A DNA stretch of 52,656 nt from IMG/VR virus record IMGVR_UViG_3300049893_002244, positions 1 through 52,656 of that record; one strand, written 5' to 3'. The translations under genes and the position numbers were made by a program. Positions 5,489 to 11,532 of this stretch are shown piece by piece. Below the pieces are notes generated by a model. It ran no database searches. It had not been told where the DNA came from and saw nothing but the letters and a program-made list of their open reading frames with translations. The stretch comes from a virus. Taxonomy: Duplodnaviria > Caudoviricetes. Numbering within the stretch: position 1 is the first letter of the stretch; every line of letters starts with the position of its first letter.

Positions 5489-5744
5489 CGCCTCCAAAAT
5501 CCTGTTCATCAACAAAGCCGGTCAGTCCTCGTTGGTAACAAACTGCGAGTTCTTCGACGGCACCGATGATGAATTAAAGAAGTTCGTTCTTGACACGCTT
5601 AATCTGCTTGGCAAGTCGGCTCATGCATTAATCAAGCGGGGCGACAAGTTTTTTGTTGTTGACCACACCGCCCGCAAGGGTTTGAGTAAGGTGTATTGGG
5701 AACATGAAACCAAGTATCACCCCTACATGAAGGAACTCGTCTAA
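5478..5744 (+). CDS. hypothetical protein
   Basis: ORF coupled to neighbours. Confidence 0.65.
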   Translation: MATNASKILFINKAGQSSLVTNCEFFDGTDDELKKFVLDTLNLLGKSAHALIKRGDKFFVVDHTARKGLSKVYWEHETKYHPYMKELV

Positions 5745-5959
5745 TGTTCATCGTCTACGGTCAACGCTATCACGCTTACGAGCCTTTCGTTCTGACCAAG
5801 GATATCGCCGGTGTTGGTGAGGCCGGTGATGTTCTGGACGATGGTCAACCGAAGAAGATTATCCTCGGGCGTTGGGATGATGAGAAGATTGCGCAGAACT
5901 TTGCCGCCAATATCAAGGCGAGCGTTCCCAAGCGCAGTTGGAATGTTTGGGTAGAGTGA
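5744..5959 (+). CDS. hypothetical protein
   Basis: TAATG overlap with previous ORF. Confidence 0.7.
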   Translation: MFIVYGQRYHAYEPFVLTKDIAGVGEAGDVLDDGQPKKIILGRWDDEKIAQNFAANIKASVPKRSWNVWVE

Positions 5960-6020
5960 TATAAAAAATGCAGATTTCGTCACTTTTTTGTTGACGGTTG
6001 CATATATATCCGTAAAGTTG

Positions 6021-6248
6021 GTCTTGTTCTTTGAGAGAGTTGTCACGACACACACATAAAAGCACCCCTTTGATGAACCCGTGGTGCGCCAATTTCGCGC
6101 CGCCAGTATAATGCAAACGCTGTAAGAAGTGGAAGCAAGAGTAAGGTGGATGAGAAGAGGTAGAGACGTAATGGAGATAGAGATTCCGTTTGTGAAAATC
6201 ACGGGCTGTGGGTAGAATGGAAAATCAGCGGATTTCTGAAAACAAGAC
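6021..6248 (+). ncRNA. putative ~230-nt non-coding RNA with paired ends
   Basis: Own promoter (TTGACG 5991), boxA-like GTTCTTTGA, terminal complementarity gtcttgtt/aacaagac, no credible ORF. Confidence 0.4.
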
Positions 6249-6375
6249 TTGACTTTTGATAAAAGTGTGCTAGAGTGGTGGCTCAATCAGTTCTTTGAAG
6301 GTCTAAGAGTAAGCTGCTGGGAAATGCCGATGTGCCGTATGGCACACAAAACATCCCGACCTATTACAATTTCAT

Positions 6376-6450
6376 GGCAGGGTAGAGTATGTGGTAACTC
6401 AGCACGCTCATAATGTGCCGCAACGGATTCAAACGCCGTCCCTGCTCCCA
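6376..6450 (+). tRNA. tRNA with CAT anticodon (Met or Ile2)
   Basis: GGCAGGG/CCCTGCT acceptor, GAGT/ACTC D stem, GCACG-CT CAT AA-TGTGC, TTCAAAC T loop with one T-stem mismatch, encoded CCA. Confidence 0.85.
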
Positions 6451-6651
6451 ATTTGGACAACAGTCAAGTAGCGACGTTGGTATTATTCCAGCAAGCAAAC
6501 GTGAGTCCAAATCTGCTACAGAAGATAGTCTCTAGCCATCGGGCTAGTTAATATCATCTCTAGCAACAATTTCCGCCTACCATGTGTAGGAGAGGAGTTT
6601 AGCCTTCGTCCATGTGGCGCAGGCCGTTTTCAGTTCTTTAACAATACAATT

Positions 6652-7445
6652 TACGGGGGGTATGACCTCCGACAGCATCGCAAGATGTTGTGAAGATACG
6701 CCAATCGAAAGGTTGGGAAAGGTAGAGCACCCAAGCTCTATCGCCGCTTCGCGGTCAGTTATACAAGCGTAGTCTCTTGGCTTTACCCGTATGGAGTAGA
6801 GCTATGTTCGAAGAGTGATAGACTGTAGCCGTTCAAGTTCCAGAGCCAATCGGTGAGGATATAAGAAGGTGGAACCTTCCGGGGCGGTCTTACCAACATT
6901 CGAGAAAGGAAGATGAAGCGTATGATACATGCTGCGAGGTATTGCAACCGAGTGGTGAGTATCAGTTGGCGATGGTAGCGTTGGCTCGAAAGGGCTGGCT
7001 GTCTATCTTTGACAACCGGATAAACTACATGCAAGTAGAATCTAAGGCGATGGTTCTTATACACTGGCTCAAAAGGTCAGTCGTAGATGCCAGAGCACGT
7101 CGCTATTGGGTATCGCCCGCAAAGGGCACCGAATATTGAATTCGACCATACAAAAGCATAAGCCTCTGGCTCTGTGAACCGAAAAAGGTTTAAGTCCATC
7201 CGTAAGAAGGTGGAGCGCGTTGGGACCGCAAGTCCTGATGTGTTTGATAAGAGAAGTAAGCGTTGTGGGGGTTTAGCGGCCTTCGCACGTTGAAAGTCCT
7301 GTCGAGTAAGTTCACGGTAAACTCTACTGCATGAGTCTAAACTAGCAACCTTGGCCGATACGACCCGCGAGGGCGTGGACAAGCTGGGAAAAAATAATCC
7401 AGCGAAAGTCGGGACCGTTTAGGGTGTAATCTCAACCCGTTGAAA
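6652..7445 (+). ncRNA. giant structured ncRNA, GOLLD-like
   Basis: ~790 nt without a credible ORF, many GNRA-capped hairpins, between boxA and an intrinsic terminator, adjacent to a tRNA in a phage. Confidence 0.65.
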
Positions 7446-7451
7446 ATCTTT

Positions 7452-7479
7452 AGGCCACTCTTAGCGGAGTGGCTTTTTT
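7452..7479 (+). terminator. intrinsic terminator
   Basis: aggccactc/gagtggctt stem followed by a T tract. Confidence 0.85.
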
Positions 7480-7515
7480 GTTGACTATTTATAATCACCT
7501 GTCAACGTAGGGGAT

Positions 7516-7734
7516 ATGGCTAAAACCAAAACCTACCGAATCCCTGTTTCGTGGTCTGTCATGGCCACTATCGAAGTCGAGGCGAAAAGTCTCGCAGAAG
7601 CAATCGAGGAAGCCGACAATCGTGCGCTTCCCACCGACCCGGAATATATCGACGGCTCGTTTGAAGTGAATCGCTCCTTCATCACCGCCGTCAACGAGAA
7701 TCTCTCGGAGAAAGACTTGGAAGAGTGTGAGTGA
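7516..7734 (+). CDS. hypothetical protein
   Basis: Leaderless after promoter 7481. Confidence 0.75.
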   Translation: MAKTKTYRIPVSWSVMATIEVEAKSLAEAIEEADNRALPTDPEYIDGSFEVNRSFITAVNENLSEKDLEECE

Positions 7735-9002: not shown

Positions 9003-9145
9003 TGAGCATCATCCCGGCAGTAATCCACTCCACTATCTCTAGGAAAAGAGGTGGTGGGGGTGGAGGCGGCGGGGGTGATGGATGGAACTTTTTTGATTCC
9101 ATGCTCCTTGTCGCGCTCATTCTGCTCATCATCTTCTTTTGGTAA
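9002..9145 (+). CDS. small poly-Gly membrane peptide (47 aa)
   Basis: TGATG coupling; RKR-G9-DGW followed by a hydrophobic tail. Confidence 0.55.
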   Translation: MSIIPAVIHSTISRKRGGGGGGGGGDGWNFFDSMLLVALILLIIFFW

Positions 9146-9150
9146 GTTTC

Positions 9151-9180
9151 GAGCCCGCTCCCAAAAAGAGCGGGTTTTTT
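9151..9180 (+). terminator. intrinsic terminator
   Basis: gagcccgctc/gagcgggttt stem followed by a T tract. Confidence 0.85.
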
Positions 9181-9216
9181 GTTGACATTTATAAAAACGC
9201 GGGCATTCTCTTTCAT

Positions 9217-10359
9217 ATGAAGCTCGACCTATCACTCGCTGACGCTGAAAACTTTATGTGCCACCAACACCTGATTGGTGAGCATCAAGTTATGCTTATC
9301 CAGCCGGTGCATATCGGCTGCAACTGGACCAAGGACAACATGGTTTTCCGTTCGGTTGTCGTGGACGTTGAAGGCAACATCGTTTCTGCCTCGTTCAAGA
9401 AGTTCGTCAACTGGGGCGAGAAGCCTCACCTGACCCCGCCGCCGACCAATCTGGCGAACGCTCGCCTCATGGAGAAGCTGGACGGTTCGACCCTGATTTT
9501 CTCCCGCTACAAGGGCCACACTGTTATCCGCACTCGTGGCACCGTGGATGCTCGTAAGCAAGAGAACGGCTACGAGATTGACATCCTGTGCGAGAAGTAT
9601 CCGCGACTCCTTGAAACCTTGGAGTCAACCGACACTCACACTGAGTCATTCATCTTCGAGTGGACCTCTCCCTCGAACAAGATTGTGCTGAACTATGGCG
9701 ACGAGCCGGACATGGTGCTGACTGGCATCATCGACCACACCGACTATTCCTATATGTCGCAGGCTCACCTCGACGTTGTGGCGAAGTCGCTTGGTCTGCG
9801 TCGTCCGAAGACCTACTCCTACAACTCGGTTGAGGAGATGCAGCAAGCCGTGACCGACATGAAGGGTATGGAGGGTCTGTGCATTTACTTCCACAACGAC
9901 CAAGAGATTCTCAAGGTCAAGTCGGCACAGTATCTTTATCTGCACCGTGCCAAGTCGGAGATTTCCTCGGTGGAGAAAGTGATGGACCTGTATCTGTCCT
10001 ATCGGGACGAGCTTGGTCACACTCCTTCCTATCAGGAGTTCTTCGCCTACCTTGAGAAGATGTTCGATTACGAGATTGCGACGATGGCAATCTCCAACGT
10101 TTCCCAAATCGCTGACGCGATGAAGGAGGTTGAGAACATCCTCGACGGCATGAAGCGTTTCATCGAGTCAATCCGTGTGCAGAAGATTGGCAACTACACC
10201 GTCACCCTCAACGACCGTCAGGTTCGTCGTGGTGCTGCGGAGCGCATCATTCAGGCTTATGGCAACACTGGTCGCTCTGCGATGGTGTTCAAGATGCTTG
10301 ACGGCAAGCCGCTGGTTGCCGATGATTACAAGAAGCTCCTCTTTCAAGTCCTCAAGTGA
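9217..10359 (+). CDS. T4 Rnl1-like RNA ligase
   Basis: Nucleotidyltransferase motifs KFVN, EKLDGS (adenylated Lys), FEW, EG, KVKS. Confidence 0.85.
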   Translation: MKLDLSLADAENFMCHQHLIGEHQVMLIQPVHIGCNWTKDNMVFRSVVVDVEGNIVSASFKKFVNWGEKPHLTPPPTNLANARLMEKLDGSTLIFSRYKGHTVIRTRGTVDARKQENGYEIDILCEKYPRLLETLESTDTHTESFIFEWTSPSNKIVLNYGDEPDMVLTGIIDHTDYSYMSQAHLDVVAKSLGLRRPKTYSYNSVEEMQQAVTDMKGMEGLCIYFHNDQEILKVKSAQYLYLHRAKSEISSVEKVMDLYLSYRDELGHTPSYQEFFAYLEKMFDYEIATMAISNVSQIADAMKEVENILDGMKRFIESIRVQKIGNYTVTLNDRQVRRGAAERIIQAYGNTGRSAMVFKMLDGKPLVADDYKKLLFQVLK

Positions 10360-11406: not shown

Positions 11407-11457
11407 TTTTGGTTGACGAAACCCGGGATAACCCCATAGTTATCCCTGTTCTTTGAT

Positions 11458-11532
11458 GCCGAGTTAGCTCAATGGTAGAGCACCTGTTTTGTAAACAGGC
11501 GGTTGTCGGTTCGAGTCCGACACTCGGCTCCA
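11458..11532 (+). tRNA. tRNA-Thr(TGT)
   Basis: Canonical cloverleaf GCCGAGT/ACTCGGC, CCTGT-TT TGT AA-ACAGG, TTCGAGT, CCA. Confidence 0.97.

Follow-up and report, generated by a model that had tools for sequence, protein, structure and literature searches.

GOLLD RNAs are among the very few natural RNAs known to build cages free of protein. According to excerpts of Kretsch et al. (bioRxiv 10.1101/2024.12.08.627333) and of a review (PMC12990946), they assemble into cages of 10, 12 or 14 subunits and combine a conserved 3' domain with a variable, less conserved 5' domain; the cages known from cryo-electron microscopy include those of the env-38 GOLLD, an RNA of 833 nt forming a 14-mer (bioRxiv 10.1101/2024.12.08.627333), and of the S. 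agalactiae GOLLD, an RNA of 700 nt forming a 12-mer, whose 3' domain alone forms a 10-mer (PMC12990946). In the solved GOLLDs the 3' domains constitute rings and the 5' domains caps, closing an RNA-only cage whose stoichiometry depends on peripheral elements; in particular, the excerpts describe the S. agalactiae RNA as an example in which variation of the 5' domain and of P21 alters the stoichiometry (PMC12990946). The present analysis concerns a locus of an uncultured phage, in which positions 6651-7449 (+ strand) of the IMG/VR record IMGVR_UViG_3300049893_002244 very probably represent the gene for a GOLLD-family RNA of ~790-800 nt. The window, that is the whole stretch of DNA analysed, is the entire virus record of 52,656 bases, whose completeness is estimated at 59%.

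Family identity of the RNA

The initial annotation had described 6652-7445 as a highly structured non-coding RNA and had proposed for it either GOLLD or a new giant RNA class. The GOLLD identity is borne out by the Infernal search against Rfam, in which the covariance model RF02032 matches 7045-7438 (+ strand) with 140.3 bits and an E-value of 9.6e-39 over model positions 1-416 of 416; a search of the phage's own genome gives an E-value of 8.0e-41, and none of 14 control genomes shows a match. The match begins mid-way in 6652-7445 because the model spans just the conserved 3' half of GOLLD. The 3' half of the RNA is a statistically unambiguous full-length match to this domain, far better than the E-value of 1e-5 or less given as the collection criterion for GOLLDs in the excerpts of Kretsch et al. 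(bioRxiv 10.1101/2024.12.08.627333). The parts of the RNA are listed below, L090 being the one close relative that turned up in IMG/VR.

7045-7438, + strand: conserved 3' domain of GOLLD, from the covariance model match to Rfam RF02032
7131-7145, + strand: linker hairpin of the 3' domain; in L090 both partners differ in 4 of its 5 stem pairs, while the AUUGA loop is conserved
6651-7044, + strand: region assigned as the GOLLD 5' domain, with a lineage-specific fold; homology with L090 resumes here, and the 5' end is uncertain by ~15 nt

The unpaired signature motifs of the family, namely the UCAAAAG loop, the GAGUA junction, the GGGAAAAAAUAAUCC loop and the GUAAUCUCA loop, are aligned to the consensus with high posterior probability, the AAAGCA.AAG and CGCAA motifs of the RF02032 consensus are likewise aligned, and 8 of the 10 pairs of its long-range helix are standard in the window. 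Pairing is kept with respect to L090 across the 117 pairs predicted for the 3' half, five of which are doubly changed. The P21 region consists of one short hairpin, whose loop UUUAGCGG is conserved in L090 and palindromic only at GC, and the linker of the 3' domain carries extra hairpins. In GOLLD the subunits are joined by kissing loops, namely L20 with J13/15 or L15 and the palindromic L21a/L21b. When Rfam was searched with an E-value threshold, nothing besides GOLLD fell below 0.7 in 6200-7700 or 5700-6700; ROOL, OLE, HEARO, group I/II introns, RNase P and transfer-messenger RNA (tmRNA) gave no match at E ≤ 10 in the same two regions, and no tmRNA was called by ARAGORN.

The absence of a credible open reading frame (ORF), also claimed at the outset, is confirmed. 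A gap of ~1.55 kb extends from the end of the upstream ORF at 5959 to the start of the downstream ORF at 7516, and the longest ORFs over 6652-7445 encode 101 amino acids (7077-7382, - strand), 93 amino acids (6783-7064, - strand) and 65 amino acids (6942-7139, + strand), all of them interrupted by 1-nt indels in the alignment of the window with L090. The GC skew ranges from +0.11 to +0.18 over 6600-7599 and is negative in the flanking coding DNA. Folding of 6651-7445 yields a minimum free energy of -284.9 kcal/mol, whereas 20 dinucleotide-shuffled sequences average -246.0 (z = -6.06; none of the 20 is as low), in agreement with the proposed high degree of structure, and the hairpins named as examples are found at 6672-6691 (acagcatc-GCAA-gatgttgt), 6701-6716 (ccaatc-GAAA-ggttgg), 6984-6995 (gctc-GAAA-gggc) and 7364-7373 (ccc-GCGA-ggg).

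A giant RNA class unrelated to GOLLD, or a coding region read in an unusual way, is extremely improbable in the light of these data. For the 5' half, which alone is unlike canonical GOLLD, no relative is detectable in known families, and minus-strand ORFs of 93 and 101 amino acids do exist; however, the GOLLD match extends over the full model with its E-value of 9.6e-39, both minus-strand ORFs contain 1-nt indels with respect to L090, and the substitution pattern is compensatory. The new class put forward by the initial annotation is not supported for the whole RNA.

Soil and sediment RNA libraries contain contigs with related sequences. Words sampled from the stretch are found in the 24 public runs listed, one of which, a DNA run, is probably the source. 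Four runs were aligned at an identity of at least 80%, namely the metatranscriptomes X3, X6 and X9, from three studies, and the DNA run X2; the small-share runs X4, X5, X7, X8 and X10-X24 did not serve as evidence of habitat or expression. In the RNA runs the cover is confined to 6693-7447, with zero depth in 6300-6668 and 7448-7520; in the DNA run a 13-kb contig extends past the RNA on both sides (6366-6573 and 6644-7494). The boundary between the halves at 7044/7045 is crossed by a 664-nt contig spanning 6758-7414 (X3 record 3), by a 707-nt contig spanning 6727-7374 with 63 diverged letters upstream (X9 record 15) and by X6 record 9, which spans 6999-7249; in addition, a 781-nt contig, with ends equivalent to ~6664 and ~7436, bridges both halves and, like the 664-nt and 707-nt contigs, lies wholly inside the RNA. 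Contigs of two studies stop at 7436, two bases short of the end of the Rfam match. The loose contig ends have the same 5' hairpins with compensated stems, and paired variants at 7384/7385 and 7401/7402 preserve the helix bearing the GGGAAAAAAUAAUCC loop. The contigs, whose identity to the window is 85-95% in the three studies, lend moderate support to the presence, in relatives of the window phage, of an abundant and discrete RNA of ~780-800 nt; the support is graded as moderate because contigs in RNA libraries do not prove transcription, and the absent cover of the flanks in the RNA runs is a weak hint only. With regard to the Rfam hit, the covariation and the stable transcript on which the initial annotation had made its proposal depend, an RF02032 match exists, compensatory changes are seen in the single homolog, and contigs from RNA libraries cover the RNA.

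The 5' half and the position of the locus among GOLLDs

The 5' half belongs to the same unit as the 3' half, with which it is contiguous, and is both structured and conserved. The alignment with L090 comprises a near-identical methionine transfer RNA (tRNA-Met), a diverging spacer and again homology from boxA onwards, which is uninterrupted over 6651-7449, and the two halves are not divided by any ORF, promoter or terminator. The RNAalifold prediction for the 5' half comprises 122 pairs, all standard in both the window and L090; 10 of them, belonging to 7 of the 20 helices, are doubly changed. When the partners are slid by 1-3 columns, 0-1 double changes are left, and the observed values are attained in 1 of 500 shuffles. 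The covariation derives from L090 and from the variant letters in the contigs, since the searches for the lineage gave no further relative.

The canonical 5' domain, comprising P1-P12 of the lake-type consensus, was represented as a whole by three covariance models built from 44-50 non-identical canonical GOLLDs, R2 corresponding to subdomain A, R1 to subdomain B and R3 to subdomains C and D. These models find other divergent GOLLDs, R2 and R1 with 49-69 and 22-35 bits, respectively, in L081, L086, L097 and L053, and R3 with 98 bits in L105 and 31 bits in L053; in L090 none of the three finds anything. Judged by such comparisons, the 5' domain of the lineage formed by the window and L090 is not recognisably homologous to the canonical one. 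This is an extreme case of a known tendency and not a new class, because the literature already calls the 5' domain variable; similarly, the failed canonical 5' test counts against the term canonical GOLLD and not against membership, as the 5' domain is not defining. Piecewise remodelling of the 5' domain is found in other lineages as well, since L081, L086 and L097 have canonical A and B subdomains (66-69 and 27-35 bits) and no R3 match in C and D. A by-eye likeness of GGUAUG...UAUAC-AAG-CG to the canonical P1 closing helix with its AAG junction receives no support from R2 and was retained as a lead only.

A motif scan of IMG/VR returned 104 stretches, and the records of 50 of them were searched with RF02032, which matched in 46 and scored over the cut-off, with 183-333 bits, in 45. 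L090 is the only locus similar to the 5' half of the window (nhmmer E-value 1.6e-94), and in a clustering of 80 full-length upstream regions (79 loci and the window) 71 fall in one cluster, while the window and L090 cluster by themselves. A distant-mode blastn search of 6300-7500 against 50,697 phage records gave no match; a loose two-anchor pattern in IMG/VR returned at least 119 stretches, and nhmmer detected no relationship for any of those listed; with three patterns specific to the lineage, IMG/VR yielded L090 and nothing further; two scans of JGI metagenomes gave 0 and then 17 loci, with 0 of the 17 related by nhmmer. The single match of a scan of GTDB genome contigs is a chance one, in a coding region of a metagenome-assembled genome, and was discarded as a lineage member. 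The RNA of the window is the most divergent GOLLD among the loci examined here; the family itself is already known, and this member differs by its replaced 5' domain.

Four other loci (L017, L035, L089 and L092) share the GOLLD 3' motif pair that was used as search pattern; the records of L017 and L035, the latter classed as a provirus, have no RF02032 match at E ≤ 0.001, and the four are either due to chance or represent a relative that has diverged still further.

Several points weigh against the assignment of the whole span to GOLLD. The score of 140.3 bits is 9.7 under the Rfam gathering score of 150, which is why a default-threshold Rfam scan of the whole window reported two tRNAs and not GOLLD; the Rfam cut-off thus conceals divergent GOLLDs, and the only other sub-threshold match among the 50 records is L090 itself (148 bits), the other 45 scoring 183-333 bits. 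Within 6400-7500 the best scores of R2, R1 and R3, with filters off, were 8.2, 5.9 and 2.2 bits in degenerate alignments, and the window gave no match to an nhmmer profile derived from 56 canonical 5' regions; since the profile and the three models fail, the label of GOLLD 5' domain rests on position, size and contiguity. Moreover, the covariation comes from one relative at ~87% identity, with a structure predicted from the same alignment, and the central 5' subdomain (helices 7-15) is invariant between the window and L090, so that it shows no covariation. Lastly, the RNA-library contigs may stem from contaminating DNA and give neither strand nor exact ends.

Part of this evidence could also be read in favour of a composite locus, in which only 7045-7438 is GOLLD-like and the 5' half would be a non-coding RNA of its own or a long structured leader located upstream by chance. 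Such an arrangement, with which the failure of the three canonical models and of the profile on 6651-7044 would agree, as would the 3' domain of S. agalactiae that assembles alone into a decamer (excerpts of PMC12990946), is nevertheless unlikely: nothing promoter-like and no credible terminator-like site is found between the halves, the conservation with L090 is unbroken across their junction, the RNA-library contigs of X3, X6 and X9 bridge 7044/7045, and the total size of 799 nt (6651-7449) fits that of full-length GOLLDs (median 800 nt in 56 canonical loci). An even smaller probability is assigned to a decaying, non-functional GOLLD remnant with a sub-cut-off score as its consequence, since all 122 + 117 predicted pairs are maintained with respect to L090, 15 of them by compensatory changes on both sides, the signature loops have stayed intact, as have promoter, boxA and terminator, and the RNA-library contigs of three studies include relatives at 85-95% identity; on the side of decay there are the lowest RF02032 score of the loci examined (140 versus 183-333 bits) and the finding of just one close relative in IMG/VR. 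The preferred reading is therefore that of one GOLLD-family RNA extending over both halves.

boxA leader, proposed transcription unit and neighbouring genes

The features around the RNA, in the order in which they occur on the + strand, are the following.

5991-6018, + strand: P1, promoter-like TTGACG-16-TAAAGT from a consensus scan, conserved in L090; possible start of the stable-RNA unit
6026-6036, + strand: boxA-like GTTCTTTGAGA directly after P1, identical in L090
6040-6245, + strand: conserved, purine-rich non-coding element of ~205 nt, with ~97% identity to L090 despite indels of 1-2 nt
6249-6276, + strand: P2, promoter-like TTGACT-16-TAGAGT with an upstream TG, before the tRNA-Met; both hexamers are kept in L090
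6376-6450, + strand: atypical tRNA-Met (CAT) with encoded CCA, called by ARAGORN
6508-6566, + strand: long leader hairpin between the tRNA and boxA, conserved in L090; boxB-like position or processing site
6567-6632, + strand: 66-nt insertion specific to the window, absent in L090; the X2 DNA contig has 99 other letters instead
6633-6643, + strand: boxA GTTCTTTAACA, a perfect GYTCTTTAANA match and putative NusB/NusE site of an rrn-type antitermination leader
7452-7481, + strand: intrinsic terminator with a 10-bp stem, a 4-nt loop and a T-run; the stem of L090 differs in sequence, with pairing and T-run kept
7482-7508, + strand: palindrome GTTGAC-N15-GTCAAC before the ribosome-binding site of ORF 7516-7734, seen in the sequence and conserved in L090

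The initial annotation had placed the RNA between a boxA at 6633 and a terminator at 7452, and both are present, as GTTCTTTAACA at 6633-6643 and as a 10-bp hairpin followed by a T-run at 7452-7475. With the consensus GYTCTTTAANA given in the excerpts of Baniulyte et al., GTTCTTTAACA is the sole match in the 52.6-kb window (0.15 expected; at least one match in 14 of 100 shuffles); it includes the critical C at boxA position 4 and precedes the RNA by 11 nt. The pattern [GT][CT]TCTTT[AG]A[AC]A, mostly in the form GTTCTTTGAAA, was sought 780-1000 nt before the 3' anchor in the 79 other GOLLD loci with enough upstream sequence and is present in 70 of them, with an expectation of 0.0099 per locus, 11-111 nt (median 68) ahead of the first base of the 5' domain. 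GOLLD loci are related, so that these counts are not independent events; yet the motif is kept while its surroundings vary. In 23 of 38 distinct contexts, versus 13 of 38 control windows, the motif is preceded at 2-4 nt by a small hairpin with a covarying stem, and in L090 the long leader hairpin directly adjoins the boxA-like motif, which has one mismatch. The leaders of rrn operons have the order boxB-boxA, which the hairpin before boxA in the GOLLD leaders recalls. A point against the leader is that boxA-like strings (position 8 = R, one mismatch) are not enriched in the window, with 11 observed and 12.7 expected.

A full-text literature search, which covered neither supplements nor the 2009 discovery paper, found no paper tying GOLLD to boxA or antitermination; the conserved boxA leader is possibly an additional, unreported feature of GOLLD loci. 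If functional, the recurrent leader would provide a handle on the expression of giant RNAs and a mechanistic link to the transcription of ribosomal RNA (rRNA) and tRNA.

boxA-like motifs are also found near tRNA genes. In 11 places of other GOLLD-bearing phage contigs, a tRNA gene (Trp, Ser, Gln, Asn, Leu) is preceded at 23-30 nt by GTTCTTTGACATATTG, and GTTCTTTGATG is located at 11448-11458, 10 nt before the tRNA-Thr of the window. The interpretation of GTTCTTTGACA, which contains TTGACA, as a -35 promoter element was rejected because the motif is only 23-30 nt before the tRNA 5' ends. Leaders of boxA type may be general to stable-RNA genes of phages.

The arrangement is consistent with a stable-RNA operon that would include, in order, P1, the boxA-like motif, the element at 6040-6245, P2, tRNA-Met, the leader hairpin, boxA, GOLLD and the terminator. 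The GOLLD RNA would be cotranscribed with the upstream tRNA-Met from sigma-70-type promoters, and boxA at 6633 would recruit the host NusB/NusE, a recruitment that would enable the polymerase to read 800 nt of untranslated structured RNA without Rho termination, as in rRNA operons; RNase P and other host nucleases would then free the tRNA and trim the ends. The element at 6040-6245 may be a separate small RNA or the leader of the tRNA-GOLLD operon; it contains no + strand ORF of at least 30 amino acids, Rfam yields nothing for it at E ≤ 10, it shows no covariation, and L090 is the only relative that was found. The microRNA-model alignments at 6508-6566 are spurious and reflect the leader hairpin. 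The sequence at 7452-7481 is the only convincing terminator, a candidate at 6980-6999 being an internal GNRA hairpin without a real T-run. The palindrome at 7482-7508 probably belongs to the downstream gene and may be an operator or a regulatory hairpin.

The tRNA-Met differs very little between the window and L090, and its anticodon stem contains a compensatory change; the Rfam tRNA model reports nothing at 6376-6450 even at E ≤ 10, and the T-arm appears irregular by eye. GOLLD RNAs reside in phages or prophages, frequently next to tRNA genes. Among 105 oriented GOLLD loci, tRNA-Met is a neighbour in 21 and far more frequent in this position than any other tRNA; in 10 loci (the window, L090 and 8 others) it is the closest of the upstream tRNAs, and in 11 loci it follows, at 12-22 nt, the 3' anchor motif near the 3' end of GOLLD. 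The phage tRNA operon of the initial annotation stands in part, as tRNA-Met is ~200 nt upstream of the RNA; the other two tRNAs are 4 kb downstream, past protein-coding genes.

Among the neighbouring genes, a T4 Rnl1-like RNA ligase is encoded at 9139-10359 (PF09511, E-value 8.4e-14; phrog_562), 1.7 kb downstream of GOLLD, and is followed 1.1 kb further on by tRNA-Thr/Glu. The neighbour genes include no recognised polynucleotide kinase, and most neighbouring ORFs have no Pfam or PHROG family. The ligase and the tRNAs suggest a tRNA-repair and translation module, and the neighbourhood as a whole, with the atypical tRNA-Met, two further tRNAs and the ligase, is compatible with the published idea of a link of these RNAs with tRNA or translation. 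The closest cultured phages share less than 33% amino acid identity in the RNA ligase and the helicase; for this reason, no host was assigned.

Predicted cage assembly and comparison with known systems

By analogy with the solved GOLLDs, the RNA of the window most likely forms a homo-oligomeric cage, in which the 3' domains would constitute two stacked rings capped by the 5' domains. Its subunit number may differ from the known ones, because the 5' domain is different and P21 is a short single hairpin. Speculatively, the cage, encoded beside a tRNA and 1.7 kb from the RNA ligase, would act in a phage module for the takeover of translation or tRNAs and might hold or shield tRNAs or ribosome-related factors.

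A broader hypothesis, which is tentative and rather less probable than its opposite, joins these elements: the 5' domain forming the cap would have been replaced by an unrelated fold, leading to another cage geometry or subunit number, and phages in general would transcribe GOLLD and tRNAs as rRNA-like units under antitermination by host Nus factors and boxA, with a leader in which the boxB-like hairpin and boxA would guard the untranslated RNA of 800 nt against Rho and chaperone its folding during transcription. An intact ring-forming 3' domain together with a wholly different cap would amount to a natural domain swap, which can show which parts set the size of the cage and which are dispensable.

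The closest described system is the env-38 GOLLD, with which the window RNA shares the end-to-end model match of the 3' domain, the length of ~800 nt, the two domains and the phage origin. As stated for env-38 in the excerpts of the paper, it is located downstream of tRNA-Met, and the conserved loops to which the papers attribute tertiary or inter-subunit contacts (the A-rich L14, the GNRA L24, L26 and L27) are present in the window. In contrast to canonical GOLLDs, the window RNA scores 140 bits versus 183-333 bits for 45 other GOLLDs of IMG/VR, its 5' domain is not recognised by the models, P21 is a single short hairpin and the linker carries extra hairpins. The short P21 resembles the reduced P21 of the S. 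agalactiae GOLLD, which lacks P9, P11a-c and P21b, in a comparison made with the description in the excerpts only (PMC12990946).

Among other RNA families, ROOL, described in the excerpted literature as an 8-mer cage, is likewise a large ornate phage RNA that occurs near tRNAs and forms a cage; in contrast, its fold differs, and no ROOL match was found at E ≤ 10 in 6200-7700. With the boxB-boxA-boxC leader of rrn operons the locus shares a perfect boxA, a hairpin before boxA and a long untranslated structured transcript; unlike the rrn leader, it is phage-encoded and contains no rRNA, and the 66-nt insertion parts the hairpin from boxA.

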